DNA from: a virus
Virus record (IMG/VR): IMGVR_UViG_3300020045_020105
Location: 1-64,000 of that record
DNA: 64,000 nt
Direction: 5' to 3' (one strand)
Below, one piece after another: positions 5,921 to 59,274 of this stretch (its first letter is position 1; each line of letters opens with the position of its first letter). A model generated the notes under the pieces. That model did no database searches and was not told the DNA's origin. It saw nothing but the letters and a program-made list of their open reading frames with translations. Position numbers and translations under genes: made by a program.

Positions 5921-5975
5921 GTCTTGCGCAATAAAATATTTTTATTATAAATTATTCATTTAAAAACAAAGAATC

Positions 5976-6440: not shown

Positions 6441-6484
6441 GATATCAATTAGTGCTATCTATAAATTTATTAAAAAACTTAAAC

Positions 6485-6961
6485 ATGAAGAATTCAATCT
6501 TAATTTTATTTTTAGGACTGATGTTAAGTCTAGCATCAAATTACCAAGTTCAAGCTCAAACAATTCCTCTTCCAGAAATATCAACAATTATTACAAACCA
6601 AAATCCTTCAAACCCACAAGTAGAGGTTCCCAAAGTTGGATTCTTTAAAAAAATATGGGATAACGCTAAGGATAGTGGAATTTGGGTTATAGTTATGTAT
6701 ATTTCTGGTATTCTCTCTAAAAATGGTGTTACTAAGATAATAAAGAAAATAGCTGGTAAAGGAACTATTATTACCCAGGAGTTAACGGAGATATCAATAG
6801 CATCAAATCAATTCTTTAAATTACTTGATGGGGCTATAGCTGATGATGGAACCGTAAAGCAAAATACTTTAAAAGAAGCTGTTGCTGCAGGGAAAACGGT
6901 TATAGCCGAAACTAAGGAAGGATATAAGGTAATCATTGAACCTACTAAGACAGCAATTTAA
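6485..6961 (+). CDS. Signal-peptide + TM membrane protein (holin/spanin-like candidate)
   Basis: MKNSILILFLGLMLSLA..QVQAQ signal and a second hydrophobic segment GIWVIVMYISGIL. Abuts the endolysin. ATG 6485 preferred to TTG 6437. Confidence 0.45.
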   Translation: MKNSILILFLGLMLSLASNYQVQAQTIPLPEISTIITNQNPSNPQVEVPKVGFFKKIWDNAKDSGIWVIVMYISGILSKNGVTKIIKKIAGKGTIITQELTEISIASNQFFKLLDGAIADDGTVKQNTLKEAVAAGKTVIAETKEGYKVIIEPTKTAI

Positions 6962-7384
6962 ATGAATAGAATCCCATTAACCCCAAATTTATTTCTTGAT
7001 GAATATATCCCAAAGAACCTATATTTAAAATATGAGAAAGCCCCCCATATTTTAATTGGAAGTTTGGATATAAGGTTGATTAAAGCAGATCAACTATTGA
7101 GAAATAAATTTGGGTCTGTAACAATAAATAATTGGTGGAGTGGAGGAGATAGAAATTGGAGTGGATTAAGAACCTCAGACAGCCCCTATTTCTCCCCAAC
7201 CTCCCAGCATTCTTTTGGAAGAGCAAGTGATAAACTATTTGGGGTTGGTGCTGATGATGTACGCAATTACATAGAGCAAAATTGGCAGAGCTTAGGAATA
7301 ACTTGTATTGAAATAAATGTAGACTGGATACATAGTGATGTACGGTGGTGGAATGGATCTGGATTATTAAAAGTAAATCCTTAA
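6962..7384 (+). CDS. Peptidase M15-family endolysin
   Basis: SGLR...SQHSFGRASD (HxxxxxxD) and WIHSD zinc ligands. Confidence 0.8.
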   Translation: MNRIPLTPNLFLDEYIPKNLYLKYEKAPHILIGSLDIRLIKADQLLRNKFGSVTINNWWSGGDRNWSGLRTSDSPYFSPTSQHSFGRASDKLFGVGADDVRNYIEQNWQSLGITCIEINVDWIHSDVRWWNGSGLLKVNP

Positions 7385-7394
7385 AATAATAAAA

Positions 7395-8612
7395 ATGTCA
7401 GAATTATTAAAAAATTGGGTAGACCCAGAAGCACCCCAATTAGCTATTTGGGCAGAAAATGTTTTAAGTAAATTAATGGATGAAGGTATTGTTCCTAAAT
7501 ACATTGAAAGAACGGAAGACTATGAATCACTTTATAGGACAATTTGCAATATATTTTCAATATTAGTTGAAGGGGGAAGACAATTTAACAATTTATCGAA
7601 TCAACAAGCATTATTAAAAGAATACTTGATTCAAAGAAATTTATATTTTGGCTCAAAAGAAGTAGATTTGATTACGCTTAATTCCTTAAAAGAAAATTTT
7701 AAATCCTTAATAGAAAAAAGAGGGACAGAACAAATATTTACTCAAGAAGGTGAATTATCTAGAGTAATAGATAGAGAGATAACAGATGAATTTATCTACA
7801 ATATTTTAACAAATTACAATTCTGGATGGATTTTAGACGTAAGTTCTCCAGATTTTAATGGTATTTCTCGTTCAGGATTAAATGTTAAGGTCTTTGAAAA
7901 GACTAAAGATATTGTTAACCTTGAAGCTTACCCAATTAAGGAAGATGGAGGAGAAATTACTGATGCTCTTGTTGAAATTATTGAGGATGAAGATAAGCAA
8001 ATTTTAAAACTATCTAATATCTTAAATAACCATATAGTTGGAATTTTTAGTAATTCTATTATTATTGACCCTTCTTTATCTTATGAAGTATCTTTTTATG
8101 TTAAAAAAACACTATCCTTTTCAAACTTAAATATTCAGATAATTGGTGAAGATATATATAGTACCCCCCTCCAGTTACTTAGCACAGTAACAGGATTAGG
8201 TACTAATGATGTTCTAAGAAATTGGAGTTTGGCTTTAGTAGATAATTACTATTTTGTTAGGGTGATAATTTACAATAAAGATATTTTAGCTTATAGAGAA
8301 AAGTTAAATATTGGTTTTGGGAATAATTTAATTTTAAGAGCCAATATTGTGAAAATCAACCTAAATATCTTTACAACAGGGGGAGCTAGTGCTGAAGTTC
8401 TTCACTTTTGGGATATTAAAATGAGACCGTTAGAATCTCCTTTTACAAAAGGATTTATCTCCCCACCAAAAATATTGAAGTTATGGTTGAAAAACAATAA
8501 TAAGTCCTTTTTAGAAAGGAATGGAGTATTATCAAAACTTGAGTATATAATTAGAAAGTTTCTCATATCTTATGATTTAGAATTAAAAGTAAAATATTTA
8601 AAAAATGAGTAA
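7395..8612 (+). CDS. Putative baseplate/tail structural protein
   Basis: Position among structural genes; helical N-terminus with a KRGT motif and a beta-rich C-terminus. Confidence 0.4.
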   Translation: MSELLKNWVDPEAPQLAIWAENVLSKLMDEGIVPKYIERTEDYESLYRTICNIFSILVEGGRQFNNLSNQQALLKEYLIQRNLYFGSKEVDLITLNSLKENFKSLIEKRGTEQIFTQEGELSRVIDREITDEFIYNILTNYNSGWILDVSSPDFNGISRSGLNVKVFEKTKDIVNLEAYPIKEDGGEITDALVEIIEDEDKQILKLSNILNNHIVGIFSNSIIIDPSLSYEVSFYVKKTLSFSNLNIQIIGEDIYSTPLQLLSTVTGLGTNDVLRNWSLALVDNYYFVRVIIYNKDILAYREKLNIGFGNNLILRANIVKINLNIFTTGGASAEVLHFWDIKMRPLESPFTKGFISPPKILKLWLKNNNKSFLERNGVLSKLEYIIRKFLISYDLELKVKYLKNE

Positions 8613-10413
8613 AATAAACTTAGTAAGTCAACTATTTCTAGGAGATGTTGAACTTCAAAAATTACTGTTTTTCTTAGGAGAAGATGGGTTTAAAAAATTA
8701 TTTGGACTTGAAGTGAGTTCATTTGGTATTCCCCTTAAAACTCTTACAGATAATAATTTCCTAATTCAATCAGATACCCCTGGCACAATAAAAATGGTTT
8801 TAGATTCCATAGCCATGGATTCTCTTTTAAATGTAATATCTCAAAAAGCATTTTCTGGTTTAGAAATTCCAACAGCTGATGGCATTAATTATGGCATTAG
8901 AATTAAATATATTTCTTCAAATCTAGAAAAAGGAACGGTATCTCTATCTGCAAATGGAGAATTGACTGGAGTAGGAACAGAATTTACTAAGGTACTTAGA
9001 GGAAATATCGATTTTCCAAATTCAGTAACTTTATGGGAACCTACAACTAATGTTAGGATAGGAAATTTTGAAATATCTAGAGTTATTTCAGATACTCAAG
9101 CAATATTGTCTGGTGATTTTTTAGGGGTAGCCAATCTAAATAAGGTATTCTCTATTGGTGGTACCTTTAACCCTGGGTATGTTCCTTCAGAATCAGAATT
9201 AAATATATTTTCTTATGATAGTTGTTTAATTGAATTTATTGCCTTACCTTCCTTACTCACAACTAAACTTGGTTTAGATCCCTATATAATAGATTCAGAG
9301 AATCAATTTTTTGTTGCTGTAGTATCTAACTTAGCAGGAGTGGTTACAGTAACAGATACAAGAAGGGAATATCAATACTTATCTCAAGGATCTAGTTATA
9401 CTCAAGAAGCTATTACAGCTTTTAATGTGAGCTTCCAAAATCAACTTAGAGGGATAAATGAAAATCTAACTGCTCTTAATGCTTCAACTCTTACGCTTCA
9501 AGCTAAAACAGCGGGAATAGATGTAAGAAATTGGAAGATTAAGGAAGAAGGAGGTGTATTGAATTTTTATACTCCAGATGATTTCTTAATTGAATCTATG
9601 GCAGCCGAGCAAATTGACTTTTTTAAACCAGTTATTGGGGTTAATTTCTTAATAAGGGGAGAACATTTAGCAGCATTCCCTATCTTTCTCTCAATCCCAT
9701 CTACAGCAGGAGTTCATACTATTGAAGTATCTGGATCAACAGGATTTACACTATCAAATATGCCTTCTTGGCTTACAGCTACTTTTGATTTAAATAGTAT
9801 TGAATTAACGGCAGAAGCCAATCCCAATTATGCAGTTAGATCTGGTACTTTTACGATTACAGATACTGCGAGTTCTGAAACAGTTCAAGTTCAGATAAGT
9901 CAAGAAGCTAAAGCTCAGACATTAGTTATTGGTGCTGCTTATCAAGGTGGAACTATTGCCTATATATTACAGCCTGGGGATCCTGGTTATGATGCAAATG
10001 TTCCTCATGGAATAATCGCTAGTCTACTTGATGCTAGTTTTGTAGGAATGTCTTGGAACAGAGTTAGTGGATTTAATTACTTATCTGGTTCTGCAGCAAT
10101 ACTATTAGGAACTGGCCCTTCAAATACAACAAACATAGTATTATCTCAGGGAGCTTCTTTAACACCTTATGCTGCTCTGGCTTGTGATTCTTTGGTTGTT
10201 ACAGAATATTCTGACTGGTACTTACCATCTAAGGATGAATTAAATAAACTTTATATAAATAGGGTTGCAATAGGTATGCCAGCTTCTACTTATTGGAGTT
10301 CTAGCGAAATATCTATTAGTAATGCTTGGGCTCAGAGCTTCTTAGATGGCTCTCAAAGTTCTGAATTTAAGTCTAGCGATATTTTCTATGTTAGACCTTG
10401 TAGAAACTTCTAA
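8605..10413 (+). CDS. Tail/receptor-binding protein with BACON-like Ig domain and C-terminal DUF1566 (C-type lectin-like)
   Basis: PSWLT...AEANP...RSGTFTIT (BACON-like); IGAAYQGGTIAYI, YSDWYLPSKDELNKLY, YWSSSE, VRPCRNF (DUF1566). Confidence 0.75.
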   Translation: MSKINLVSQLFLGDVELQKLLFFLGEDGFKKLFGLEVSSFGIPLKTLTDNNFLIQSDTPGTIKMVLDSIAMDSLLNVISQKAFSGLEIPTADGINYGIRIKYISSNLEKGTVSLSANGELTGVGTEFTKVLRGNIDFPNSVTLWEPTTNVRIGNFEISRVISDTQAILSGDFLGVANLNKVFSIGGTFNPGYVPSESELNIFSYDSCLIEFIALPSLLTTKLGLDPYIIDSENQFFVAVVSNLAGVVTVTDTRREYQYLSQGSSYTQEAITAFNVSFQNQLRGINENLTALNASTLTLQAKTAGIDVRNWKIKEEGGVLNFYTPDDFLIESMAAEQIDFFKPVIGVNFLIRGEHLAAFPIFLSIPSTAGVHTIEVSGSTGFTLSNMPSWLTATFDLNSIELTAEANPNYAVRSGTFTITDTASSETVQVQISQEAKAQTLVIGAAYQGGTIAYILQPGDPGYDANVPHGIIASLLDASFVGMSWNRVSGFNYLSGSAAILLGTGPSNTTNIVLSQGASLTPYAALACDSLVVTEYSDWYLPSKDELNKLYINRVAIGMPASTYWSSSEISISNAWAQSFLDGSQSSEFKSSDIFYVRPCRNF

Positions 10414-10424
10414 TAATTAAAAAT

Positions 10425-10934
10425 ATGTTAAAATTATTTTATACTGGCGCTTTTGCCGTTAATCAACCGAATTTAACACCCCTCCTAACATCGTTAGGGG
10501 GGTTTGTTTCTTCATCTCCAATCCCAAATGGTAGAAAGAACTCATTATTTTCAGATATAAGTAAAGCAATGTCTGAAAAGGGGAAAGAAGAAATTATTGG
10601 ACTTTGTATAAAAAATGATAGTTTAACAGAAACTGTCTCTGATATTCAACTTTCAATTTTAAACCCTGAAACTCTTAAAGGAAAATTTAAAATAGGATTT
10701 ATTGCCATAGGAATGGATTTACAAATGGAAAAATTAGCTTCATCAGCGGATTTACCTTATTACACAGAACTAATAGATTTTGATGGATTAACAACTATTG
10801 AAGGTAATCTATTACCTGGGAAATATATTGGAGTTTGGTTACAAAGAACAATAGCTCCTTTTGAGTATCTCCTTCCAATTGAACAACAATTAGAACAAAT
10901 AGAAATATCTCTAGGATGGGAGGTTGTTCCTTAG
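10425..10934 (+). CDS. Hypothetical virion protein
   Basis: SLGG..SS...N.LF.DIS...GVWLQR pattern; last gene of the structural block. Confidence 0.4.
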   Translation: MLKLFYTGAFAVNQPNLTPLLTSLGGFVSSSPIPNGRKNSLFSDISKAMSEKGKEEIIGLCIKNDSLTETVSDIQLSILNPETLKGKFKIGFIAIGMDLQMEKLASSADLPYYTELIDFDGLTTIEGNLLPGKYIGVWLQRTIAPFEYLLPIEQQLEQIEISLGWEVVP

Positions 10935-10955
10935 AAAAGATTTCCGAATTCTTTT

Positions 10956-10986
10956 TTGGAGAATTTAGAGATTTTTCTTATATTTG
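10956..10986 (+). promoter_or_regulatory. Bacteroidota sigma70-type promoter, class B (GAATTTAGAGATTT spacer motif)
   Basis: TTG at 10956; TATATTTG at 10979-10986. Confidence 0.7.
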
Positions 10987-11006
10987 CTGAGTTAAAGATA
11001 GTAAAT

Positions 11007-11687
11007 ATGAAAGCAAAAGAAGAGATAGTCTCTATATATACCTATATAAAAGGAAAAATAGGATTGAAGGTTGAGAGTCTTAAAACAGTAAATAATACTA
11101 TTGACTCCTTTTTCAAATTACTTGAAGAAGCAAACTTAACAGATCCTGAAATAGTAAAAGCAAATTGTGCTAATAATTTTTTGGAAGCAGTATCAGAGGA
11201 ATGGTTATTCCTCTATATTGCCTTTCATTTTCAAAATGATATAAATTATAAGACCTATAAGGCAGGACTAGAAAATAAAACTTTTGATTGGGTGTTTTAT
11301 TTGAGTGGATTTTGTACTAAAAAAGCACTTTATATCTATGAGAAGAAAAAACCTCAGTGGTTATTTTTTGTAGAAAGAGATTTATTAAAAAAATATAAAT
11401 TTAATTATCAAACATATCTATCAGAGGTAAAAGGGGAAAGCACTATCTTAGAACCAACAACCCCAACCTCTAAAGGATTTACAATTAACAGAGTGGAAAA
11501 ACCTATATCACAAGAGAAAATTACTCTAGATGAACTCCTCCCAATAGAAGATAAGGAGAGATTGAGATTTCTAAATACAGAGCAAGGGTTATATCATTGT
11601 ATAACGGAAGAGATTTACTTTAAAATGGAGAGTGATAATTGTAAACAATGTAAATTTAAGATAGAATGTCAGGAAAGAGTTTGGTAA
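11007..11687 (+). CDS. Hypothetical protein with C-terminal Cys cluster
   Basis: ATG 11007 lies downstream of the promoter; C...CxxCxxxxxC. Confidence 0.55.
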   Translation: MKAKEEIVSIYTYIKGKIGLKVESLKTVNNTIDSFFKLLEEANLTDPEIVKANCANNFLEAVSEEWLFLYIAFHFQNDINYKTYKAGLENKTFDWVFYLSGFCTKKALYIYEKKKPQWLFFVERDLLKKYKFNYQTYLSEVKGESTILEPTTPTSKGFTINRVEKPISQEKITLDELLPIEDKERLRFLNTEQGLYHCITEEIYFKMESDNCKQCKFKIECQERVW

Positions 11688-11905
11688 AAACATATTGTAT
11701 TTATAAGGGAAGTTTTAATTCTATCAAAGGAGTTATTTCCTTAATGATTCTATCAATCCAAGGAGACCCTCAATTTTTTTCTAAAGAAGAAGCTGAAGAT
11801 TGGATAGTTAATAATTGTAAGGATTGGGAAACTTTAGTAATACTTCCCCTGTATATGGTTAAAAAAGAAAAAGATGGTGAAGAAAAGCAATTGGGGGAAT
11901 TGTAG
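11666..11905 (+). CDS. Hypothetical protein
   Basis: ORF overlaps both neighbours. Confidence 0.4.
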   Translation: MSGKSLVKTYCIYKGSFNSIKGVISLMILSIQGDPQFFSKEEAEDWIVNNCKDWETLVILPLYMVKKEKDGEEKQLGEL

Positions 11906-12347
11906 TGGTTGTTCTATTTTTAGTTTTATAGTAAATAAAACGCACTACATATGTGCTAAGTGTAATGAAAATAGATTAGGTGGTATTAGAGAAAATAAAC
12001 CCAAGAAATCTCTATCTCAATTTTCCACCAAAGGAAGAATTAATAAGCAGAAAGTAGATTCAACCTATAAAGAAATGGATGAATCATCAGACCAACTTTG
12101 CTCTGGGTGTGAGAGAACCCATGTAATAACTCATTCTCATATCTTTCCAAGAAGTTTTAAGCAATATGAAGCAGAAAAATGGAATATCGGATATCACTGT
12201 ATCCCCTGTCACGATCTTTGGGAGAGTAAAGATATAGAACAAATGAAAAAATTATTGGATTTTGAATCAAGAATGGAAGTAATTAAAACTCATGATGAAA
12301 ATTACTATAATTCACTTTTAGAAAAAACAAGATGGCAAAGAAGGTAA
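11874..12347 (+). CDS. Zn-binding HNH-type endonuclease
   Basis: CSGC..THSHIFPRS..NIGYHCIPCH plus N-terminal CxxC pairs. Confidence 0.65.
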   Translation: MVKKSNWGNCSGCSIFSFIVNKTHYICAKCNENRLGGIRENKPKKSLSQFSTKGRINKQKVDSTYKEMDESSDQLCSGCERTHVITHSHIFPRSFKQYEAEKWNIGYHCIPCHDLWESKDIEQMKKLLDFESRMEVIKTHDENYYNSLLEKTRWQRR

Positions 12348-12775
12348 CTCCAACTGTAAAAGATATTAGAGATTCGATATTGGATGAATTAAGGAATGCT
12401 CTTATGTTAGTCGGTGAAGAGCTACTATCTGAAATACTATCTAGTTACTATTTAGGATCTGGTGAAGATACTCTAAAAGCACTGCAAGAATTTAATACTA
12501 CTTATACAATATTTGAAGCAGAAGAAGGGCAATTACTTAAAGGTTTTTTAATTGTAAAAGATTTTAAAATTGAATATAGTCAGGTTAAAAATTTTAATAA
12601 AACACTTAAATGGGTTAAAGATGATTATAAGTTTGGGATTGTAATAAATGAAGATCCTAATGATAAAATATTTCAAGCAAATCAAAAAATATATTTTGAA
12701 TCAGAGAAACAAAGAGATTTAGAATACGCAAAAATAAAAAAGAAATTAGAAGTATTTAACCAAAAATTTAAATAA
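12332..12775 (+). CDS. Hypothetical protein
   Basis: ORF in operon context. Confidence 0.5.
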   Translation: MAKKVTPTVKDIRDSILDELRNALMLVGEELLSEILSSYYLGSGEDTLKALQEFNTTYTIFEAEEGQLLKGFLIVKDFKIEYSQVKNFNKTLKWVKDDYKFGIVINEDPNDKIFQANQKIYFESEKQRDLEYAKIKKKLEVFNQKFK

Positions 12776-18465: not shown

Positions 18466-19440
18466 ATGATTGTAAATGAGATTGAGTTAAAGAAACTACT
18501 TCTATTAAGGCCCTCAGGGAATAAAGGATGGTTCACTTCAATGTCTCCTTGTCCATTCTGTGGTAAAAAGGGAAAGTTAGGAATTATATTTGGAAAACAA
18601 ACTTCTTCTTTCCATTGTTATTCAGGGAAATGTGGTAAAGAAGGAAGTATTTATTTAGTATTAGAGAAACTTGGAAGAACAGATTTAATTCAAGGATATA
18701 AACCAGTTGATTTAACTAAAAAACTTGAAAATAGATTAACTGGTGAAGATGAAATCGAATTAGATGTAAAAACTTGTAAAATGCCGATGGGGTTTAAGAG
18801 AGTTTATTCTAATCCCTATATGGAAGGCAGAGGGTTTACAGCTAAAAAGTTTGAAAAGTATCTTGTTGGTGAGACTAAGATAGATCCCAAGTTAAAAAAA
18901 GACTACATTATTTTTGGAGTAATTGAGGGAGGAGAAGTTAAGGGGTACTTAGGAAGGAACACTAAATACGACAAGAAAGAATTAGAAAATGAAAATAAGA
19001 GAAGAGAATTATTAGGGTTAAAACCTATAATGAGATATTTAAACTCCTCATCTCCTTTTGAAAAATTGGTATTTGGGCTTGACGAAATAACAGAAGAAAC
19101 AAAGGAGATTATAGGTGTTGAAGGAATTACAGATAAATTTAATATTGAGGATTTTGTCGATAAAAGTACTGTAATAATAGCAACTTTTGGGAAGAACTTA
19201 TCTATATTTCAAATTTTAAAAATAATGCGAAATGGGCCAAATATAGAAAATTTTATATTAATGAGGGACCCAGATGCCTTAGCTAAGATGAAGGAAGAAA
19301 GTTTTAAAGTAGAACATTACCTTCCAACTAAAGCAATAAGGTTAATCGATAAAGACCCTGGTGAACTGAGTAGAGAAGAATTTAATGAACTATATAAAAA
19401 ACAATACGATCCTTTAGAGTTAAAATTAGATATCTTATAA
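18466..19440 (+). CDS. DNA primase (Zn finger + TOPRIM)
   Basis: CPFC..HC..C; VEGITD; DPDA; KDPG. Confidence 0.88.
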   Translation: MIVNEIELKKLLLLRPSGNKGWFTSMSPCPFCGKKGKLGIIFGKQTSSFHCYSGKCGKEGSIYLVLEKLGRTDLIQGYKPVDLTKKLENRLTGEDEIELDVKTCKMPMGFKRVYSNPYMEGRGFTAKKFEKYLVGETKIDPKLKKDYIIFGVIEGGEVKGYLGRNTKYDKKELENENKRRELLGLKPIMRYLNSSSPFEKLVFGLDEITEETKEIIGVEGITDKFNIEDFVDKSTVIIATFGKNLSIFQILKIMRNGPNIENFILMRDPDALAKMKEESFKVEHYLPTKAIRLIDKDPGELSREEFNELYKKQYDPLELKLDIL

Positions 19441-19442
19441 TT

Positions 19443-19937
19443 ATGATAATAAATCAAAATTCATCAAAACAAAATTTCTTAGATATACTTCAAAAAGAAT
19501 ATCTTGTATTTAGTATGAGAAAGGGCTTCTATCCCTCAGAGAGTGATAAAAGATTTTTTACAACCCTATTGGGGTTTAAAAAAGCAAAAATATTTGATTT
19601 GGGAAGTAAATTACAACAACTTACAATTTTCACATCTGATGAGGTATTAGCTTATTATGTAAGTATTATATCTTTGGATTTTACCTTCCCTAATTTTTTC
19701 TATATCCCTCAAACAGAAAAGGAATATGGTAAAAAGGATTTGATTTACTATTATAAAGTGGGAGCTAAATTTGATTTTGCTCATAAAGGAAGCTTAGTTA
19801 TTAAGGATCTCCATCTTGTAGATATTAAAAATAAAATATGCTACTTTAAAGAGAATTCAGAGATTTTTAAAAAGAATTTTGGAGAAGTAGAAAGACAATT
19901 TACCTTTGAATCATCAAATCTGGAATTTAAATTTTAA
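19443..19937 (+). CDS. Hypothetical protein
   Basis: ORF coupled to the primase. Confidence 0.5.
   Translation: MIINQNSSKQNFLDILQKEYLVFSMRKGFYPSESDKRFFTTLLGFKKAKIFDLGSKLQQLTIFTSDEVLAYYVSIISLDFTFPNFFYIPQTEKEYGKKDLIYYYKVGAKFDFAHKGSLVIKDLHLVDIKNKICYFKENSEIFKKNFGEVERQFTFESSNLEFKF
19851..19908 (+). promoter_or_regulatory. Predicted promoter of the guanidino-enzyme cluster (inside the upstream ORF)
   Basis: TTG at 19879 and TACCTTTG at 19901-19908 (22-nt offset, as in the other class B promoters); GAGAATTCAGAGATTTT at 19851. Confidence 0.55.
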
Positions 19938-19955
19938 CCATAAATTATATCAAAA

Positions 19956-20894
19956 ATGAAAAATGCTCAAAAAACAATTTCAACAATTGAAACTCCTTCT
20001 TATTTGTTGAATCTTCCAACCTCATTTAGTTCAAAAGAAGCTAATAATGTTTGGATGGAAGAAGAAGTTGGTAAGGAAGATTCAGTGGTAAATCCAGAAG
20101 TAGCTCTTGCTCAGTGGTTGGATCTTTACAATATTATGTCTTCAAATGCTTTTGTTCAGGTTCTCCCAACCCCTGCCAAGTGTGAACTACAGGATTTAGT
20201 TTTTGTTGCAAATTTGGGAATTGTGTTACATCACATTAAAGATCGAGATGTTGTTATTGTTAGTAATTTTACCTCTCCTCCTCGCCAAGGTGAAACTCAG
20301 GTAGGAGTAGATTTTTTCAATTTCGCTGGTTATGAAGTCCATGTTTGTCCTTTTAAGTTTGAAGGTGAAGCAGATTTAAAATATATTCGTGATAATATCT
20401 ACATCGGTGGATATGGACAAAGAAGTACATTCGCTGCTTATGAATGGATGGAAAAGAATTTTGGAATGAAGATTATTAAAATCAAAATGAACAATCCAAA
20501 ACTTTATCATTTTGATTGTATGTTTTTCCCAATTACCTCAACAGATGCTTTACTTTGTACTGATGAAGTAACAAAAGAAGAACTACTTGAAATCAAGTCT
20601 GTTATTGAAATTATCCCAGTACCAATTGAGTTTGCTCAAAATGGAATTACAAATAGTGTGAGGATGCACAATTTGGTATTAAATGCTTCCTTCATTACGG
20701 AACTTGATCCTATTTTGGATAAAGAAGATTATCTGGTTGAAAGAGGTAAAAATCAGTTCTTGGAAGATGTATTGAGTGATTTTGGGATTGAAACCATATT
20801 TGTCAATATAAGCGAGTATATGAAGGGCGGGGCACTATTATCTTGTTTAGTTTGTCATTTAAACAGGAATAGTTATAATTACGAATTAGTTTAA
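19956..20894 (+). CDS. Pentein-family amidinotransferase / DDAH-like enzyme
   Basis: DLVFVAN, RQGE, FEGEAD, LYHFDC, KGGALLSC catalytic motifs. Confidence 0.85.
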   Translation: MKNAQKTISTIETPSYLLNLPTSFSSKEANNVWMEEEVGKEDSVVNPEVALAQWLDLYNIMSSNAFVQVLPTPAKCELQDLVFVANLGIVLHHIKDRDVVIVSNFTSPPRQGETQVGVDFFNFAGYEVHVCPFKFEGEADLKYIRDNIYIGGYGQRSTFAAYEWMEKNFGMKIIKIKMNNPKLYHFDCMFFPITSTDALLCTDEVTKEELLEIKSVIEIIPVPIEFAQNGITNSVRMHNLVLNASFITELDPILDKEDYLVERGKNQFLEDVLSDFGIETIFVNISEYMKGGALLSCLVCHLNRNSYNYELV

Positions 20895-21425
20895 ATGGAA
20901 CTAATAGGACCAAAAGAGCCATATAAAATTTGTTCTCAATGTAAAAAGGAGTATCCCTTAAGTGACTTTCACTATCAATACAGTAGAGGTGCTTATGGAG
21001 TATGTTGCAAACATTGTAAAAATAGAAAAGCTCTAGAAAGAACTTGGAGGTTAAGAGGGTTTTCTTCACCAGAAGAAGGAGCTGAGGTTTTAAGAAAACA
21101 AACAGCAAAACATAATAGATTTTCTGCGGTTTACCTTATTTGGTTAGGGGAGAAAAATTTATATTATGTAGGATCTTCTGAGCATTTTTTATCTAGAAGA
21201 GCTAATTGGATTAGCTCTATTAAGAATGTGAATCCTAATTATAGAGTAAGAGATAATACAAGGATCTATCTCAATAAAGTTCTTACCAAAACCAATTTTT
21301 ATTCTATTAAGATTTTACAAAAATTACCAGTAGATTTATCTCCTGAAGAAATTATTAAAATTGAAAAAGATTGGATTATTAAAGTAATTTTAAAGCATAA
21401 AAATATTTATAATAATTTGACATAA
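20895..21425 (+). CDS. Zn-finger + GIY-YIG putative homing endonuclease
   Basis: CSQC..CKHC; AVYLI...YYVGSS....R...EKDWI...YN. Confidence 0.7.
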   Translation: MELIGPKEPYKICSQCKKEYPLSDFHYQYSRGAYGVCCKHCKNRKALERTWRLRGFSSPEEGAEVLRKQTAKHNRFSAVYLIWLGEKNLYYVGSSEHFLSRRANWISSIKNVNPNYRVRDNTRIYLNKVLTKTNFYSIKILQKLPVDLSPEEIIKIEKDWIIKVILKHKNIYNNLT

Positions 21426-21429
21426 GATT

Positions 21430-22167
21430 ATGGCACAAAAATTAAAAATTTGGTTAGATACAGAAGTAGCTCTTGTTAAAGGGCAAACTACTAAGTGGTT
21501 GAGCCAATATTATTTTCATCGGGTGGAAATGCGAGGGAAAATTATTGACTCAAGTGTAATATTTACTCCTGCAGATGGGGTAGTTATGGATGCACACGAC
21601 TCTATCAAGAGTAATGAGAATATTCTTGATATTAAAGGAGTTCACTTATCCCTAAGAGACTTAATGCAGGATGAAGATCTACGTGGTTCTTTTACAGTAG
21701 TAAGTGTCTTTATGACATTTTACTCTCAGCATCAGAACTATATCCCTTACCCAGGGTACCGTACTTACTTGGAATTACCTCCAATTGATACCTTCAATAA
21801 ACCAATGTTGAAAGTTGAAAAGGAACTTCTTGAAGGAGTAATTAACCCAGCGTTTCAAGAACCTTATTTGCGCAAGAACTCAAGAGAAATTTCGACAATT
21901 GTTTCTCCAAAATTAGGACAAGATTACTATATTATCCGGATTGGTGATTATGATGTAGATACAATGGTAAATTGGTCTCAACCAGTAGGAGAAGAAAGTG
22001 CATCGTACCAACAGAATGATCGTTTTGGTATGATTACTTATGGCTCAGCTTGTATTCTTGTAATTCCTCATATTAAGGGTGGTGCTAAATTCAAATTAAG
22101 AGAAGAAGCAACCCCTGGAATGTATGTAAAATGTTGTTATGATGCTCTCGTAGATATTATTAACTAA
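21430..22167 (+). CDS. Phosphatidylserine-decarboxylase-family pyruvoyl decarboxylase, no TM anchor
   Basis: TPADG, VFMTFYSQHQN, RFGMITYG|SAC autocleavage site (predicted 40-aa alpha chain). Confidence 0.8.
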   Translation: MAQKLKIWLDTEVALVKGQTTKWLSQYYFHRVEMRGKIIDSSVIFTPADGVVMDAHDSIKSNENILDIKGVHLSLRDLMQDEDLRGSFTVVSVFMTFYSQHQNYIPYPGYRTYLELPPIDTFNKPMLKVEKELLEGVINPAFQEPYLRKNSREISTIVSPKLGQDYYIIRIGDYDVDTMVNWSQPVGEESASYQQNDRFGMITYGSACILVIPHIKGGAKFKLREEATPGMYVKCCYDALVDIIN

Positions 22168-22168
22168 T

Positions 22169-23269
22169 ATGTTACAACAACTAAAATTAGCAGGAGCTGA
22201 GTATATCTCAGTTCCTGTTGCAGAAGGAGACAATTTGGAAACAAGACCTTTACTCTTTGTATCTCCTGGGGAATATCCAATCTATGATCTTGAAGAGTAT
22301 GACTTTATGCAAGAGGACAAGATCACAGAAGAAGAATATATTGCTGCTTTAAAGCAATGCGTTCGAGGAAAACACGTTTTAGATATTGGAACCGGCAGAG
22401 ATATGGATTGGGGAATGTTTTCAATTGATCTTTGGGCCAAATCAGCAACAGGGGTTGAAGCAATTACTGAGACCTATGAGATAGCGAAGAAGAATCTAGA
22501 AAACCATGAATATAATAAGTATTTCAATCTTGTAAATTCATGGTCAACCAAATGGACTCCAGATAAGCTCTATGAGATTTGTGTTTCTGAGATCATTGGT
22601 ACAATTGGCGGTTCAGAAGGAGCAGCAGCTTCTATTAAGGATGCCAAGGAGAGACTCCTTAAACCAGATGCAAAAATTATTCCTTATAGCTGTATTACCA
22701 AGGTAGCAGGGTTTTGCCTCAGGGACTATATGCCTAAACTGGAATTTCATCCAGAAGCAGTACGCTATATTGAGCGAATTTTTGATTTAGCAGGGCATTC
22801 TTTCGATTTGCGTCTTACTCTTACAATTCCACCTAAGGAAGAGGACCTTATTACAACTCATGGAGTAATGGAAACTCTTAATTTTGAGGATGATTTAAGA
22901 ATTGAGGATGAAGAAGTTTCTTTCCTTGAGGTTACTAAAAAGGGAAATATAGATGGTTTACTATTATGGATCAATTTATTGACCCATAAGGAAGGTAAAG
23001 TAATTGATTCTTTAAATCAACAAACAGCCTGGGAAGTTGTCTATATTCCTCTATTTGACTCTCCTTATCCTTTAGAGATTGGAGATCAAGTTAATATTTT
23101 AGCTACAAGAGAATTAAGTAAGAATAAAATAAACCCCAATTATTTCTTCAATGTTGCTATCTTAGATAAATTTGGAAATTCTCAACTAGAGGAGGAATTT
23201 AGATCTCCTCATTTAGGGAGTGATTTTCATTCAAAACAAATTTATAAAGAACTATTTAAACTAACATAA
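22169..23269 (+). CDS. PRMT-like SAM-dependent guanidino N-methyltransferase
   Basis: VLDIGTG; double-E loop SEIIGTIGGSE; LLKPDAKIIP; IDGLLLW; TAW (THW-loop equivalent). Confidence 0.8.
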   Translation: MLQQLKLAGAEYISVPVAEGDNLETRPLLFVSPGEYPIYDLEEYDFMQEDKITEEEYIAALKQCVRGKHVLDIGTGRDMDWGMFSIDLWAKSATGVEAITETYEIAKKNLENHEYNKYFNLVNSWSTKWTPDKLYEICVSEIIGTIGGSEGAAASIKDAKERLLKPDAKIIPYSCITKVAGFCLRDYMPKLEFHPEAVRYIERIFDLAGHSFDLRLTLTIPPKEEDLITTHGVMETLNFEDDLRIEDEEVSFLEVTKKGNIDGLLLWINLLTHKEGKVIDSLNQQTAWEVVYIPLFDSPYPLEIGDQVNILATRELSKNKINPNYFFNVAILDKFGNSQLEEEFRSPHLGSDFHSKQIYKELFKLT

Positions 23270-23742
23270 TGCTTTTAAACGCACAAAATATTATGCAATT
23301 CCTTACTCCCTCAGAGGGAGTAGGGGGAAAAGCTCAAGTAGGTTATGATTTAAGTATTAAAAATATTACCAAGATCATAGGTGGAAATATTTGCAAAACT
23401 TTTAAGGAGATTATGCCCTATGAACAGGTTGTTTGTAACTCAGAAAATACTTGGGAGTTAGAGCAAGGAGTTTATTCATTAACTTTTAATGAGGGGATTA
23501 AATTAGATTCAACTCATTCTGGGTTTGTTATTCATAAAAGTAGCATCTTAAGATGTGGTGGGTTTATAACCAGTGGAGTTTTTGATAGTGGTTTCGAGTG
23601 TAAAGAAATTGGTGCTACTTTATTTGTTGCTGCTAGGATTGAAATTGAAAGAGGAGCTTCTTTAGCTCAATTCTTAATTGTTGAAAATCAACCTGCTGAG
23701 CTCTATAACGGTAATTATCAAGGGGAAAAGGACCTCAAGTAA
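23269..23742 (+). CDS. Trimeric dUTPase/dCTP-deaminase-fold enzyme
   Basis: GYDLS, KSSILRCG, FDSGF, LAQ, YNGNYQ. Confidence 0.8.
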   Translation: MLLNAQNIMQFLTPSEGVGGKAQVGYDLSIKNITKIIGGNICKTFKEIMPYEQVVCNSENTWELEQGVYSLTFNEGIKLDSTHSGFVIHKSSILRCGGFITSGVFDSGFECKEIGATLFVAARIEIERGASLAQFLIVENQPAELYNGNYQGEKDLK

Positions 23743-23745
23743 ATT

Positions 23746-24735
23746 ATGGCAAGAATATTGAAAACAAAATCAATTGGTTATGGGGATATCGTTTCCATAG
23801 CTCAACCGGCAGCAATCCATTCAAGGAAACAAATTCCTATTGAAGGGTGGAGGATAATGGTGTCGTCTATGACATCAATAATTGGAAGTACCTTTATTAA
23901 AGCTTGTTCTGCGCTTGATGAAGACATTCAACCCTCAATCCATTTGCCAAGAGACATATTTTTCGAGGAAAACATTCAATTATTGAGCGAATTAAATTAC
24001 CCTAAACATAAAGTTTGGGTAGGAATTGGGCTTAATGATAGGGAAAGAATAGATATGGCTAAAGCATTGGGGTTTACTCAAATTCTAATTGATGTAGCCA
24101 ATGGATATCTTCCCCAAGTAAGAGCTAAAGCACTTCATCTTTTTAATAAAGACTTTACTGTTTGTGCAGGTTCTGTTCATACAGCTCAAGGTACTTTGAA
24201 TTTAATTTCATCAGGTTGTTCTATGATCAGAACAGGAATTGGTCCTGGTTCTGTGTGCCTCACTAAAGATGTTACATCATACACAAGAGGACCTATTTCT
24301 GAAATTATGGAAATGGCTGAAATTGCAGATGCAAATGGAAGGGTTATTTTAGCAGATGGTGGAATTGCGAGCTCAGGAAGTGCAGTAAAAGCATTCTTGG
24401 CAGGTGCAAGCATGATTATGTCTGGTCGCCTATTTGTAGAAGCAGAGGAGTGTAGAATGCACCAACCTAAAGAAGAACGAATGGTAGGAAAGTATGAGTT
24501 ACCTGCCCATAATTATTTCGGAATGGCTTCTCAATGGGGAAAACTTTCAATGAATGGTGGAGTTTTAACTCAAGAAAATATTGAGGGAAAGGTAGATTTT
24601 ATCCACCCAACAGAAAAGCTAAAATATATTCTTGAGTCAATCTGGGAGGGGATTCGCAGTGGTGTATCTTATAGTGGTTATAAAACCCTTACAGATGCAA
24701 TTGGAAATGGAGTTTTTGAGTTAATTCACAAATAA
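23746..24735 (+). CDS. guaC: GMP reductase / IMPDH family
   Basis: IDVANG, GIGPGSVC, ADGGI, FGMAS, EGK, GIRSGVSYSG; no CBS domains. Confidence 0.8.
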   Translation: MARILKTKSIGYGDIVSIAQPAAIHSRKQIPIEGWRIMVSSMTSIIGSTFIKACSALDEDIQPSIHLPRDIFFEENIQLLSELNYPKHKVWVGIGLNDRERIDMAKALGFTQILIDVANGYLPQVRAKALHLFNKDFTVCAGSVHTAQGTLNLISSGCSMIRTGIGPGSVCLTKDVTSYTRGPISEIMEMAEIADANGRVILADGGIASSGSAVKAFLAGASMIMSGRLFVEAEECRMHQPKEERMVGKYELPAHNYFGMASQWGKLSMNGGVLTQENIEGKVDFIHPTEKLKYILESIWEGIRSGVSYSGYKTLTDAIGNGVFELIHK

Positions 24736-24745: not shown

Positions 24746-27700
24746 ATGCTTAGAGAATGGTTAAATACTAATAATATAAAGGTTAATGAGTGGTTTACGA
24801 ATGAGCTATTTAATCTAGTAATAGATGAAAAAGTACAATCGTTTTGTTATGTTCATCCTAAAGATGGTAAAATCATAACTCAAGGCATGACTCTTGCATT
24901 AAATAGTGAAGAAATAAAACTAAGTAAAGAAGGAGTTTGGTTCTGTTTTGAGTTTGGAGGTAATATTTACTATACTGAAAATCCCAATGAAATTAAATTT
25001 ACTCTCTTTAAATATTTAGGGAAAAATGACTTTCAAGTTGATCTAGATTTTTGTAATTTAGGTTTACATGGAAGGTACGAGTTATTAAATGGATCAGGCA
25101 CCTATGAAGAATGGTGTAAAAAAGCAAAATTCCTGGGGCAGTCTGCCCTGGGAATTTGTGAGTTTCATACTTTGGGTGGAATTATTCACTTTCAAACTGC
25201 TTGCACAGACAATAAAATTAAATCTATTTTAGGTGAAGAATTTCTTATTGAGAGTAAAGAAAAAGGCAACTTCTTCAAACTGAAATTATATTGTAAAAAT
25301 AAAGATGGATGGAGGAGCTTATTAAAATTAAATAAAATTATTAATGTTGATAAAGTAGAAGAAAGTAACCCATCTATAAAATTTGAGAGTTTACTCACTT
25401 TAAGTGGAGTAATTATGGTTGTAGGTGAAAATACTAAGAAACATAACTTAGCAGAGTTAAAGGTCTTGGCTCATAAATATAAGGGAGATATTTACTATCA
25501 ATTTGATACTTTGGAGTATAAATCTAATGAACCAGATCTATTGCACTTAAATCAACAGAAGTACTATCTTTCTACACTTAAGGATCTAATCCCCCCTATC
25601 TTAATTAATGATTCTTATTATATTGATAAGGAATTATTCTATATCAAGGATAAGTTAAATCAATTAGGAAATATGGGGCATCAAAAAGAAACAATTGATC
25701 AGCATTTTAAGAGTTTAGATGAAGATTTAGAAATACTTGACTCTTTATTTGAGGAGAGTGATCTAAGACTAGAATCTCTTTTTACAGAAATGGTTGAAAA
25801 CACAATAAAGGTCGTTGAAGCTTGTGAATTTAAGATTGAATTTCACAATAAACACCTCCCAGAATATCCTTTTAAAGATTTAGGGTTTAATACAAAATAT
25901 GAGCTATTTTGGAAGTTAATCGAAGAAGGAATTGAGAGAAAAATAGTCTCATTTGACTCTAAAGATGTAGATATTTATATTGAGAGAATTGATCAAGAAT
26001 TTGATTTAATTGATAGGGGTGGTTTTATCGATTATTTTCTTATCCTGTGGGATATCTTAAAATGGTGTAAGGAGAACAATATTTTAACAGGCCCAGGACG
26101 AGGTAGTGCTGCAGGTAGTCTTATTTCTTATTTATTAAATATTGTAGAAGTTGACCCCATTGAACATGGATTACTATTTGAAAGGTTCCTAAATGAAGGT
26201 CGTATAAAAAAGGGCATTCCAGATATTGATATCGACTTTGAAGCAGAAAAGAAAACTCTTGTACACGAGTACTTAAAATCTAAATATGGAAATGAACAAG
26301 TTTGCTTTGCCGGTGCTTATAGGGGGATGAAGATTAAATCATGTATAAAAGACCTAGGTAGAGGAGTAATAGAGTACACTTATTTAAATAATGTATCTAA
26401 TTCGCTTCACTTCTCAGAATCTAAAAATGGAGAGCTAAAGTATTTATTTGCAGAAGCACTTAACAATCCAACTTTTAAAGAATTTACTAAGAGATATCCT
26501 GAGCTTATAAATGTAACTGGTGAAATATTGAATCAACCAAGATCAAGATCAATCCACCCAAGTGCTATTTTAATTATGCCAAAGGAAGAAAATGGCATAA
26601 AGAAGACTATTTTTGATTGGGTTCCAATTCGCAAGGAAGGAGAAGAATATATTTCTGAGTGGGAAGGTGCGGAATTAGAAATGGTTGGATTTTTGAAGGA
26701 AGATATATTGAGTTTAGGACAGCTAGATAAAATCAATTTTATTCTCAACCTTATTAAGGAAACCACTGGGGAGGTAATTGATCTTTATTCTATTCAAATT
26801 GATGATTCTAATGTAATGGCTCTATTTAAAGAGGGAATAAATGGAGATGTATTTCAATTTGGTAGCGAAGGTTTAAAATCCTATTGTAAGGAAGTAAAAC
26901 CAGAAAACTTAGTAGAGTTGATGAATATTGTTGCTCTATATCGCCCAGGTCCAAAATCCTCAGGAGCTCACAATACCTATGTCCACATTAAAAATGGAAC
27001 TAAGGTACCAGAATATGATTTTATGCTCAAAGAAGTAACAAAAGACACTTTTGGACTCTATATCTACCAAGAACAAGTTATGAAGGCCGTTCAGGTATTG
27101 GGTGGGTTTTCTCCATCAGATACGGATGATGTTCGTAAAGCAATGGGTAAGAAAAAAGAAGAGGTAGTTGCTCCTTATCGCAAGCAATTTATAGATTCAG
27201 CTATTTCTAAAGGCTGTGATGAAATAGAAGCAGAAACAATTTGGAAAAAACTAGAGGTATTTAGTGGATATGGATTTAATAAATCCCATTCTGCAGCTTA
27301 TGCTTATTTAGGTTATCTATCTCAATATTTGAAATACTATCACCCACTACAATTTTGGGCAGCAGCCCTACAATTTGCAGAAGAGGACTCAGATATAGGT
27401 AATTATTTAATGGAAATCGAATCTCAATTCCCTCAGATAAAAGTAGTTGCTGTAGACATAAATAGCTCAAGCGATCAAATTTCTATATCTCAATCTAAAA
27501 ATGAGATCTATTGGTCTATTAAAAGAGTAGCTTTTCTTGGGGAAGTAGCCCTTAAAGCAATATTTGACTCCAGAGCAAAAAATAGAGAGTATTTCTCATT
27601 TGAGGAATTTATTGTAGGAATTAAGGATTACAAGGGAGATATAAATAAGAGAGTAATTATGAATCTTATTTATAGTGGAGCTTTTGATTCAATTGGGGTA

Positions 27701-28363
27701 ATAGGGGATCCTATAAGTGAACCAAGAGAAAGAACTCAAATCATTGATAAGTACTTTGAATTATTACAATTAACTCCACCAAGAGTACAAAAACCAAATT
27801 GGTGGTGGATTTTTAAACAAAGAGATATTTCTGGGTTTGGAACGGTAAATTATCGAGAGTTATTTAAAAATTACCCTGGGTTGGTTGGAAAGGCTGGAGC
27901 CGGTAAACCAAATTTTAACTTTTATGATGCAAACAGATTATCCAACTTAAAAGAAGCAAATGTAGTACTTGGGGGGATAATCTTAGAAGTAACAGAAAGA
28001 ACATCAACCAAGGGAGTTTGGGGAAGTATATTGGTCGATTTCAACAATTTTCAAGTAAAAATATGTATTTGGAATGAAGAATGGATCAACCTCAAATATA
28101 AGGAGAAATTAATGGAACAAGAAGGCAAGCTATTATTGATTGAAGGGTATCTCAAAAATAAAGATGGTTGGCTTTCAATCCATAGTAGGGGAGATAAAAC
28201 ACCGGCCAATATTGAAGTAATTGACTTGGAACTTGATCTTAAAATATCTGAAACTACCCAAAAGAAAATATACCAAATGGGAGATAGAAGAGAGTTCAAA
28301 GATGGTCCTTATGAAGTAATTTTTAAAGATGGAGATACTTATAGATGGAGAAAAATCAAATAA
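24746..28363 (+). CDS. dnaE: DNA polymerase III alpha subunit
   Basis: PHP domain, GPGRGSAAGS, LLFERF, PDIDIDF, KEDILSL, ALYRPGP, YQEQVM, YGFNKSH, OB fold. Confidence 0.96.
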   Translation: MLREWLNTNNIKVNEWFTNELFNLVIDEKVQSFCYVHPKDGKIITQGMTLALNSEEIKLSKEGVWFCFEFGGNIYYTENPNEIKFTLFKYLGKNDFQVDLDFCNLGLHGRYELLNGSGTYEEWCKKAKFLGQSALGICEFHTLGGIIHFQTACTDNKIKSILGEEFLIESKEKGNFFKLKLYCKNKDGWRSLLKLNKIINVDKVEESNPSIKFESLLTLSGVIMVVGENTKKHNLAELKVLAHKYKGDIYYQFDTLEYKSNEPDLLHLNQQKYYLSTLKDLIPPILINDSYYIDKELFYIKDKLNQLGNMGHQKETIDQHFKSLDEDLEILDSLFEESDLRLESLFTEMVENTIKVVEACEFKIEFHNKHLPEYPFKDLGFNTKYELFWKLIEEGIERKIVSFDSKDVDIYIERIDQEFDLIDRGGFIDYFLILWDILKWCKENNILTGPGRGSAAGSLISYLLNIVEVDPIEHGLLFERFLNEGRIKKGIPDIDIDFEAEKKTLVHEYLKSKYGNEQVCFAGAYRGMKIKSCIKDLGRGVIEYTYLNNVSNSLHFSESKNGELKYLFAEALNNPTFKEFTKRYPELINVTGEILNQPRSRSIHPSAILIMPKEENGIKKTIFDWVPIRKEGEEYISEWEGAELEMVGFLKEDILSLGQLDKINFILNLIKETTGEVIDLYSIQIDDSNVMALFKEGINGDVFQFGSEGLKSYCKEVKPENLVELMNIVALYRPGPKSSGAHNTYVHIKNGTKVPEYDFMLKEVTKDTFGLYIYQEQVMKAVQVLGGFSPSDTDDVRKAMGKKKEEVVAPYRKQFIDSAISKGCDEIEAETIWKKLEVFSGYGFNKSHSAAYAYLGYLSQYLKYYHPLQFWAAALQFAEEDSDIGNYLMEIESQFPQIKVVAVDINSSSDQISISQSKNEIYWSIKRVAFLGEVALKAIFDSRAKNREYFSFEEFIVGIKDYKGDINKRVIMNLIYSGAFDSIGVIGDPISEPRERTQIIDKYFELLQLTPPRVQKPNWWWIFKQRDISGFGTVNYRELFKNYPGLVGKAGAGKPNFNFYDANRLSNLKEANVVLGGIILEVTERTSTKGVWGSILVDFNNFQVKICIWNEEWINLKYKEKLMEQEGKLLLIEGYLKNKDGWLSIHSRGDKTPANIEVIDLELDLKISETTQKKIYQMGDRREFKDGPYEVIFKDGDTYRWRKIK

Positions 28364-58996: not shown

Positions 58997-59274
58997 ATAT
59001 AAAAATTATGCCAAGCGAAAAAGAAAAATCGACGAAAGTAGAAGAAATTATTTTTTCTTTAGAGCAACAAGCTCAAGTATCTAACGTCAACTTAATGAAA
59101 GTTGAGAGTATTATAAGAAAGTTATTAGGACCTCAACCAGAAGCACTTCTTGATGCTGAAAAGAAAGCATTACCTTGCGGATATATTGAAGAGATCAAAG
59201 ACAAACTTCTCTCAATCTCTACCACAAACAACATGATCACTAATTTATTGGTACATATTGAGGAGATTATCTAA
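58975..59274 (+). CDS. Hypothetical protein
   Basis: ORF; ATG at 59008 is the likelier start. Confidence 0.45.
   Translation: MDKPKFINIKIMPSEKEKSTKVEEIIFSLEQQAQVSNVNLMKVESIIRKLLGPQPEALLDAEKKALPCGYIEEIKDKLLSISTTNNMITNLLVHIEEII

Follow-up and report, generated by a model that had tools for sequence, protein, structure and literature searches.

What chemistry is encoded by the block of enzyme genes that lies between the primase and DnaE genes of the virus record IMGVR_UViG_3300020045_020105? The record measures 93,246 bases, and the window considered here, which is also the scope of the family scans, is a stretch of 64 kb of it. A preliminary description of this DNA had proposed a new phage pathway in which three of these genes act in succession: a pentein enzyme regarded as an amidinotransferase, a pyruvoyl decarboxylase of the phosphatidylserine decarboxylase (PSD) family and a methyltransferase resembling the protein arginine methyltransferases (PRMTs), with a cationic DNA or nucleotide modification among the favoured outcomes. 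In the comparative analyses reported here, the core of the system is a two-gene pair, pentein and PSD-like, and not a trio. We consider with moderate confidence that the two enzymes form a heteromeric module acting on free arginine and giving a decarboxylated amine, and we infer its substrate, step order, product and use from family membership, gene neighbourhood and a fold model.

A scan with the pentein profile gave no fewer than 227 viral contigs in IMG/VR and over 443 contigs in metagenomes, and adjacency was counted in 160 loci fetched from it. The PSD-like gene directly adjoins the pentein gene in 148 of them, in both gene orders and often with 3-30 bp between the two, the remaining 12 being mostly short contigs or loci with the pentein close to a contig end. 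Such an adjacency excludes a mere coincidence of genes. The order is pentein then PSD-like in phages, and PSD-like then pentein in bacteria. Among 50,697 deposited phage genomes, the two families are found only in Campylobacter Fletcherviruses and in six Bacteroides phages (DAC/SJC), each of which has both, with the exception of two weak pentein matches (Ralstonia and Xanthomonas). The two genes are adjacent in the DAC/SJC phages and unlinked in the Fletcherviruses, where they are annotated as “amidinotransferase” and “phosphatidylserine decarboxylase”. Uncultured viruses extend this distribution, with 80 viral loci of T4-like character (about 33% G+C) encoding portal, prohead protease, gp23 capsid protein, pentein, PSD-like protein and PhoH. 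The place of the pair in marine T4-like phages is constant, with the gp23 capsid gene on one side and phoH on the other, a late-gene setting which would suit a packaging-related product. In 36 soil-type bacterial loci (56-70% G+C), an operon is composed of the PSD-like gene, the pentein gene and a MATE (MatE) exporter gene; apparent conserved neighbours of 134, 351 and 234 aa in these high-GC loci were discarded as shadow open reading frames (ORFs) lying over the PSD or MATE genes. Because MATE or ABC exporters accompany the pair in bacteria, its product is expected to be small, soluble and probably cationic. No description of the pair or of the trio was found in the literature, in agreement with the earlier statement that no described phage system with this trio was known.

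The first half of the pair (19956-20894) encodes a protein of 312 aa matching phrog_12759, which consists of a pentein domain alone, with no fused C-terminal domain of the ornithine cyclodeaminase type. By sequence, its only solved relatives are ArgZ and AgrE in the PDB (2.6e-17 with the single sequence and 5e-26 with a profile), to which a structural TM-score of 0.80 was also obtained in the Atlas. D80, N86, H185 and C297 are conserved among 27 homologues, which corroborates the Asp/His/Cys motifs reported in the preliminary description, and C297, H185 and N86 align with ArgZ residues, the position of N86 being a Ser in the ArgZ variant entry 6juz. The family has a mean column identity of 59% across phages, Nocardia, Kutzneria, KSB1 and others. 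The phage protein remains below the NCBIfam cut-offs for arginine dihydrolases (NF052232, 92.1 vs 450 bits; NF052231, 86.5 vs 1025; Arg_dihydro, E 3.4e-26) and for DDAH (NF045659, 80.5 vs 300 bits, E 1.1e-22), and homologues carry PF19420. R110 and R156 are invariant and align with DDAH residues which we take to be those holding the free alpha-carboxylate of the substrate. A specific likeness to a characterised amidinotransferase (AGAT, StrB1 or SxtG type) was not found, the sole transferase match being SxtG, at E 0.42 over 55 residues. The name of amidinotransferase, which the homologues bear in databases by automatic annotation, is consequently not retained here, since the solved relatives by sequence are hydrolases only.

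The second half (21430-22167; phrog_12670) encodes a protein which passes the PF02666 model (3.6e-17; 63.1 bits against a gathering cut-off of 22). Among 24 sequences, G205-S206, G50 and H101 are invariant and D49 nearly so; they correspond to the pyruvoyl-forming site and to its Asp and His helpers, and the protein is predicted to cleave itself at G205|S206 to form the pyruvoyl group. Its N-terminus is modelled as two short helices without evident hydrophobic anchor, so that an intact Gly-Ser site in a decarboxylase lacking a membrane anchor, as first described, is found again. The NCBIfam PSD equivalogs score far under their cut-offs (for example 32.6 vs 183). In Foldseek, the E. coli PSD comes first (8.7e-7), followed by PsiD (2e-4) and by Ao-ADC1 of Aspergillus oryzae (0.02-0.04). 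Being the best match by fold as well as by sequence, the E. coli enzyme speaks for a lipid-headgroup pathway, in which the decarboxylase would be a true PSD and the pentein, with or without the PRMT-like enzyme, would modify the ethanolamine headgroup. Such genes are treated as psd in GenBank, and likewise in an ocean survey of metabolic genes carried by viruses, which places them in lipid metabolism (PMC11360552). This pathway, or alternatively a set of unrelated housekeeping-type genes sitting together, nevertheless appears highly improbable: the gene almost universally adjoins that of a soluble arginine-type enzyme with which its product is predicted to be in contact, no pssA partner stood out among the neighbours, no membrane anchor is evident, and MATE or ABC exporters are unsuited to a membrane lipid.

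The contact between the two proteins was predicted by co-folding, which gave an ipSAE of 0.74 for pentein and PSD-like protein against 0.00 for the best control, with at least 95% of the contacts agreeing between runs and a partner pLDDT of at least 77. Of 80 solved complexes 58 attain this level of ipSAE, as do 2 of 110 mismatched pairs. In the model, the loop-strand residues 34-43 of the decarboxylase pair with residues 279-284 of the pentein. To our knowledge, there is no solved complex of pentein and PSD families that the model could have memorised. Altogether, the modelling supports a binding of the pentein to the PSD-like protein.

From the sequence and neighbourhood comparisons, the closest characterised relative of each component appears to act on free arginine, namely ArgZ in the case of the pentein, Ao-ADC1 in that of the PSD family of the decarboxylase and the SznE-type clusters in that of the PRMT-like protein. 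In the pathway that we propose, the ArgZ-like pentein would remove or hydrolyse the guanidino group and the PSD-fold pyruvoyl enzyme would take off the alpha-carboxylate, for a net conversion of arginine into putrescine or into an agmatine-type amine. The steps could follow one another from arginine to ornithine and putrescine, or from arginine to agmatine and putrescine, and an unlinked AguA-like pentein of the same genome, presented below, would serve the agmatine branch. In this phage, the PRMT-fold enzyme, putatively of the type of SznE, which methylates free arginine in streptozotocin biosynthesis, would methylate the guanidino group of arginine and thereby divert or tag some of the flux. 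The phage would employ the resulting amine as a polycation when replicating or packaging its DNA, or else the pathway would reroute host arginine. The two orders of the steps each find a precedent. The analogy with ArgZ/AgrE, which hydrolyses arginine to ornithine and of which AgrE is fused to an ornithine-consuming domain according to a title cited in PMC11659421 and to the NCBIfam model NF052231, and the invariant R110 and R156 point to hydrolysis first; the Ao-ADC1 precedent, a pyruvoyl arginine decarboxylase included in the PSD family and devoid of PSD activity (PMC12904898), and the AguA-like gene point to decarboxylation first. The arginine-based small molecule, one of the two routes sketched in the preliminary description, is thus the one that fits best, as the relatives act on free arginine; only its methylation step fits poorly.

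Several points weigh against this reading. Its substrate is drawn from distant relatives, the NCBIfam scores being 92 vs 450 for arginine dihydrolase and 54 vs 382 for AguA, and by sequence the PSD-like protein is nearest to the true E. coli PSD and not to Ao-ADC1. The complex score expresses the confidence of a model obtained from custom alignments, and the pentein could be a transferase instead of a hydrolase. Bacteroides and Campylobacter hosts already make putrescine from arginine, and the benefit for the phage is assumed. Lastly, the role of the PRMT-like enzyme is left unexplained, because a pentein removing the guanidino group would lose the N-omega-methyl group with it.

This poor fit of the methyltransferase with a destruction of the guanidino group keeps alive another explanation, which we hold to be doubtful. 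The pentein would be an amidinotransferase moving an amidino or methylamidino group from arginine or methylarginine onto the amine made by the decarboxylase, and the product would be a guanidino or N-methylguanidino amine, for instance a methylated polycation resembling agmatine or arcaine, exported by bacteria and used by the phage. The PRMT-like enzyme would then have a role in the product, which explains its clustering with the pair, and the by-product ornithine could be drawn off by the bound decarboxylase; the MATE and ABC exporters suit a cationic product, and databases call the homologues amidinotransferases. However, these names are automatic, the nearest characterised relatives of the pentein are the hydrolases ArgZ and AgrE, with SxtG only at E 0.42, most pair loci have no PRMT-like gene and the acceptor is not identified.

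Returning to the arginine-to-amine module, a more specific version of it can be put forward tentatively, with less confidence than the general one. The pair would be an unrecognised heteromeric enzyme leading from arginine to putrescine by two coupled steps: either an arginine dihydrolase would supply a new ornithine decarboxylase of the PSD fold, or a PSD-fold enzyme would decarboxylate arginine for a one-enzyme “agmatine dihydrolase”, and in this case a further route from agmatine to putrescine would exist. It would be used by hundreds of phages (marine T4-like, Campylobacter and Bacteroides) and by exporting soil bacteria, and together with the PRMT-like enzyme it would give an N-methylated amine or guanidine that is not known so far from a virus.

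The PRMT-like gene (22169-23269) matches PRMT7 (8.5e-8) and PRMT9 by sequence. The S-adenosylmethionine (SAM) motif I reads VLDIGTGRD, with G74 and G76 invariant among 23 homologues, and the Rossmann part is modelled with a pLDDT above 90. The double-E loop, E141-x8-E150, of the kind that holds the guanidinium in PRMTs, is invariant within SEIIGTIGGSEG, and the position of the THW loop reads T286-A287-W288, in which the Thr is nearly invariant and the Trp invariant, the His not being kept; the double-E loop initially noticed is confirmed, and the THW-like loop is conserved in part. The AlphaFold2 model (pLDDT 95) retrieves PRMT6, PRMT2, PRMT1 and CARM1 in Foldseek at E of about 1e-20 over 330-357 columns, including the C-terminal beta-barrel, from which the protein is modelled as a complete PRMT fold. 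Its distribution contrasts with that of the pair. No match to it was found in the 50,697 deposited phage records or in the 160 pair loci, it is not found in DAC/SJC or Fletcherviruses, and viral scans with the protein or its profile returned nothing. Relatives of all three genes (42-64% identity) share five other contigs from metagenomes, as concluded from longest-contig sizes that are identical (48915, 102632, 11957, 7717 and 13216). Furthermore, when 185,579 species genomes were searched with the profile of the PRMT-like protein, 80 loci were kept, four of which have pentein and PSD-like genes within 5-10 kb; they come from three genomes of Amycolatopsis, forming one lineage, and one of Streptomyces (47-50% identity for the pentein and 35-38% for the PSD-like protein). 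None of 400 further Actinomycetota that were sampled yielded the pentein, which makes a chance co-location of the PRMT-like gene with the pair very unlikely. The proposed trio hence holds as a functional link among the three enzymes and not as a fixed unit: when the co-occurrence of the three families is considered, the pair is adjacent in 148 of 160 loci and the trio is encountered on five contigs and in four genomes, while the methyltransferase is in no phage record and is a rare add-on to the pair.

In the DAC19 phage, a 506-aa gene (9455-10975 of the fetched locus) occupies the place of the PRMT-like gene. It was considered as a possible counterpart and rejected as unrelated; it has no family match and contains repeats of the form P-Q-N-C-G-D-[ST]-L-x-[VI]-[LI]-E-K-T. 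The place is empty in SJC03, the junction between the PSD-like and dUTPase-fold genes being a variable slot.

The genomic surroundings of the PRMT-like relatives bear on the nature of the substrate. In the Amycolatopsis island, the PRMT-like gene is followed by a convergent PAD_porph gene (agmatine-deiminase family), an ABC exporter, the pentein gene and the PSD-like gene. In cyanobacteria, Acidobacteriota, KSB1 and Chitinophagaceae, the family is a domain inside proteins of 1,300-3,300 aa of the nonribosomal peptide synthetase/polyketide synthase (NRPS/PKS) type, which points to a guanidino methylation of carrier-bound residues by these domains. In twelve Streptomyces loci (about 2,000-12,700 of each), PRMT-like relatives (33-37% identity) lie near genes for a haem-oxygenase-like di-iron enzyme (HDO; DUF3865/Haem_oxygenas_2), a nitroreductase, a protein of the JmjC/cupin type and another pentein, of the DDAH/ADI type, and the same cluster also holds fatty-acid-desaturase-like, GFA and Na/H exchanger genes. 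By analogy, this cluster resembles those of N-nitroso or N-N bond-forming chemistry of the streptozotocin type, with an added pentein. Since the relatives thus occur in secondary-metabolite clusters and NRPS proteins, free or carrier-bound substrates are argued for, and not protein arginine. The complete PRMT fold could otherwise suggest that the targets of the enzymes are arginine residues in proteins or peptides, in a host takeover by methylation or deimination or in the tailoring of ribosomal peptides, and the PAD_porph and DDAH-like families do include peptidyl-arginine enzymes. A gene for a LanM lanthipeptide synthetase also adjoins the island in one Amycolatopsis genome; this candidate link to ribosomally synthesised and post-translationally modified peptides (RiPPs) was rejected, as LanM is not in the same island of A. 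samaneae. A protein or peptide target appears very unlikely to us: the alpha-amino acid used by a pyruvoyl decarboxylase has to be free, Arg110 and Arg156, the presumed holders of a free alpha-carboxylate, are conserved in the pentein, and in the 36 bacterial loci the pair is followed by MATE, no precursor peptide or peptidase gene having stood out among the conserved neighbours.

A second pentein gene (56314-57354) of the agmatine-deiminase/PAD_porph family (PF04371, 2.1e-30) is present elsewhere in the window, unlinked to the cassette, and common to the DAC/SJC phages. The C-terminal Cys motif is present, and the TIGR03380 agmatine deiminase model gives 1.4e-14 and 53.8 bits vs a cut-off of 381.8. 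An enzyme of the agmatine type is thus found with the pair in two settings that are unrelated, as this AguA-like gene in the phage lineage and as PAD_porph in the island of Amycolatopsis, and from its sequence the phage protein is a probable unlinked member of the pathway.

The preliminary description had favoured the construction by the trio of a cationic (methyl)guanidino- or aminoalkyl group on DNA or on a nucleotide precursor. In the Bacteroides-phage lineage the genes do lie between primase and DnaE, beside two nucleotide enzymes. This setting in a replication module is peculiar to that lineage, and for this reason the neighbours, previously seen as favouring a DNA modification, provide no argument for it; the pair of the T4-like phages stands by the capsid gene in the capsid module, and that of bacteria in exporter operons, with no DNA enzymes. 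Isolates with the pair consist, apart from the two weak pentein matches, of the DAC/SJC phages and of the Fletcherviruses, in which deoxyguanosine (dG) is fully replaced by deoxyinosine (dI) in the DNA (PMC13091555). A link between the pair and deoxyinosine DNA was considered and discarded, as the Fletcherviruses have neither the GMP-reductase-like (GMPR-like) nor the dCTP-deaminase-fold (DCD-fold) gene of the cassette and no chemistry leading to dI is seen; the Fletchervirus genes are moreover unlinked, and dI needs neither of the two chemistries. Elsewhere in the window, the Pfam models, for which 25 of the 30 matched families were listed, revealed ThyA, dUTPase, RecA, helicases and similar proteins. 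Among these listed matches, for window ORFs of at least about 110 aa, there is no dUMP/dCMP hydroxymethylase, kinase of 5-hydroxymethyldeoxyuridine (5-hmdU) or of another base, amino-acid or glycosyl transferase, or DpdA/QueC-E, which agrees with the earlier remark that no DNA-attaching transferase is recognisable in the window. The PRMT-like relatives moreover work in secondary metabolism. A DNA modification by the trio is unlikely, and we give this explanation very little credence.

The two nucleotide enzymes themselves are a dUTPase/dCTP-deaminase-fold protein (23269-23742; PF22769, 4.4e-9; NCBIfam PRK02253, 6.3e-24, below cut-off) and a member of the GMP-reductase/IMPDH family without CBS domain (23746-24735; PF00478, 1e-33; PRK05096, 1.3e-33, below cut-off), so that their families had been correctly recognised. 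The former has full-length matches only in DAC/SJC phages, the matches in four other phages being partial and weak; the latter has the catalytic loop GIGPGSVC and homologues annotated as GMP reductase in several large phages. The couple lies directly before DnaE and is conserved together in DAC/SJC and in the relative contig L178. It accompanies the pair in 2 of the 160 loci, which are close relatives of the L178 kind, and its inclusion in the pathway is not upheld, since it travels with the pair in the Bacteroides-phage lineage alone. Judging from sequence, these genes are probably separate nucleotide-pool enzymes and not part of the pair; they would most simply move the C/G nucleotide pools toward T/A for a genome of 32% G+C, and may conceivably have a role in base replacement. 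A canonical ThyA (above the TIGR03284 cut-off) and a canonical dUTPase are encoded elsewhere in the window. The matches of ThyA (59274-60383, 369 aa) to its models are split (1-203 and 251-362), as if some 45 residues had been inserted.

The phage genome in which the pair is embedded has a G+C content of about 32% in the window, where every gene is on the + strand. The closest deposited relatives are the Bacteroides thetaiotaomicron phages DAC16-23 and SJC03 (167-179 kb), with a patchy DNA identity of about 69-72%. The replication block extends over 13-29 kb and is composed of genes for a terminase-like protein, an NAD ligase, a DnaB-type helicase, the primase (18466-19440), the cassette and DnaE (24746-28363). 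Within the cassette the junctions extend from an overlap of 1 nt to a gap of 10 nt, and the tightly packed series of pentein, decarboxylase, methyltransferase, dUTPase-fold and GMP-reductase genes between primase and DnaE is present as first reported. The primase gene directly precedes ORF164 (19443-19937), a gene of unassigned function with no match in Pfam, PHROG or NCBIfam; a homologous ORF of 161 aa is located upstream of the pentein gene in contig L178, and none was found in phage DAC19. An additional ORF of 176 aa (20895-21425), missed by the preliminary description, separates the pentein gene from the decarboxylase gene. It matches an HNH endonuclease of PHROG (6.9e-7) and has a Cys-rich N-terminus followed by the motif VYLIW...LYYVGSS, read in the sequence as GIY-YIG-like. 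Such an insert was found between pentein and PSD-like genes neither in DAC19 nor in 148 other adjacent loci, and the ORF looks like a homing-endonuclease insertion into an otherwise contiguous pair. The PSD-like gene of Fletcherviruses likewise adjoins a homing endonuclease gene, of the Hef type.

Transcription of the cassette from its own promoter had been suggested at 19879-19908. A promoter-like site is indeed present at 19878-19908, consisting of TTTG at 19878-19881, a 19-nt spacer and TACCTTTG at 19901-19908, and fits the -33/-7 pattern of Bacteroidota. The TACCTTTG box, which is the -7 element, occurs five times on the + strand (15156, 19901, 29170, 31483 and 42824), its four copies outside the cassette being intergenic. 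Against these favourable features, the TAnnTTTG motif is not enriched in the window (110 observed vs 96 expected) and the site falls within the 3' end of ORF164, so that a promoter specific to the cassette is plausible from the sequence and the suggestion stands in part.

If the pair makes a polyamine or a guanidino amine from arginine, it would represent a new enzyme solution in a textbook pathway, the lipid-metabolism interpretation of viral “psd” genes would have to be corrected, and a handle would be available on the supply of polycations or the diversion of host nitrogen by large phages. The “amidinotransferase” and the “phosphatidylserine decarboxylase” of Campylobacter phages and ocean viromes, annotated under these names for years, belong to one conserved and probably physically coupled module. 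As far as we could find, no gene of the PRMT fold had been seen before in a phage, and this one would tie phage metabolism to the N-methylarginine enzyme family of the streptozotocin-type and NRPS pathways.

Among known systems, the hypermodification of thymidine in phages (5-hmdU, kinase, amino-acid transfer, decarboxylation) is similar in that an amino acid is attached, decarboxylated and tailored; its defining enzymes were not found among the Pfam matches listed for the window, and the bacterial pair is accompanied by exporters and not by DNA enzymes. With the SpeA/AguA/AguB/AguY/PTC/SpeB routes to putrescine, the proposed pathway shares its initial and final metabolites, and the phage carries a gene of the AguA family. 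It departs from them by a decarboxylase fold differing from that of SpeA and by the ArgZ-like pentein, which would newly remove the guanidino or ureido group, no nitrilase-, AguY- or agmatinase-type gene being seen. A precedent for polyamine synthesis encoded by a virus is provided by the chloroviruses, through a reference cited in PMC12283126. The PRMT fold and the double-E loop are common to SznE and to the phage methyltransferase, whose Streptomyces relatives are located near SznF-type partners (HDO and cupin/JmjC); the phage is without an SznF-type gene, and the putative link relies on gene neighbourhood and on the gene content of the streptozotocin cluster. Ao-ADC1 and PsiD share with the phage decarboxylase the PF02666 fold and the Gly-Ser self-cleavage site, and both are soluble, with a free amino acid as substrate, arginine and tryptophan respectively; the phage protein differs from Ao-ADC1 by its size (245 aa vs 483), its predicted binding to the pentein and weak Foldseek matches. 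In comparison with ArgZ/AgrE, the phage partner is a separate pyruvoyl decarboxylase instead of a C-terminal cyclodeaminase, and the score is 92 vs 450. The catalytic Cys and His and the Asn of the 6juz position are kept in the phage pentein, and the two systems would have in common a guanidino hydrolase physically coupled to the enzyme which consumes its amino-acid product.

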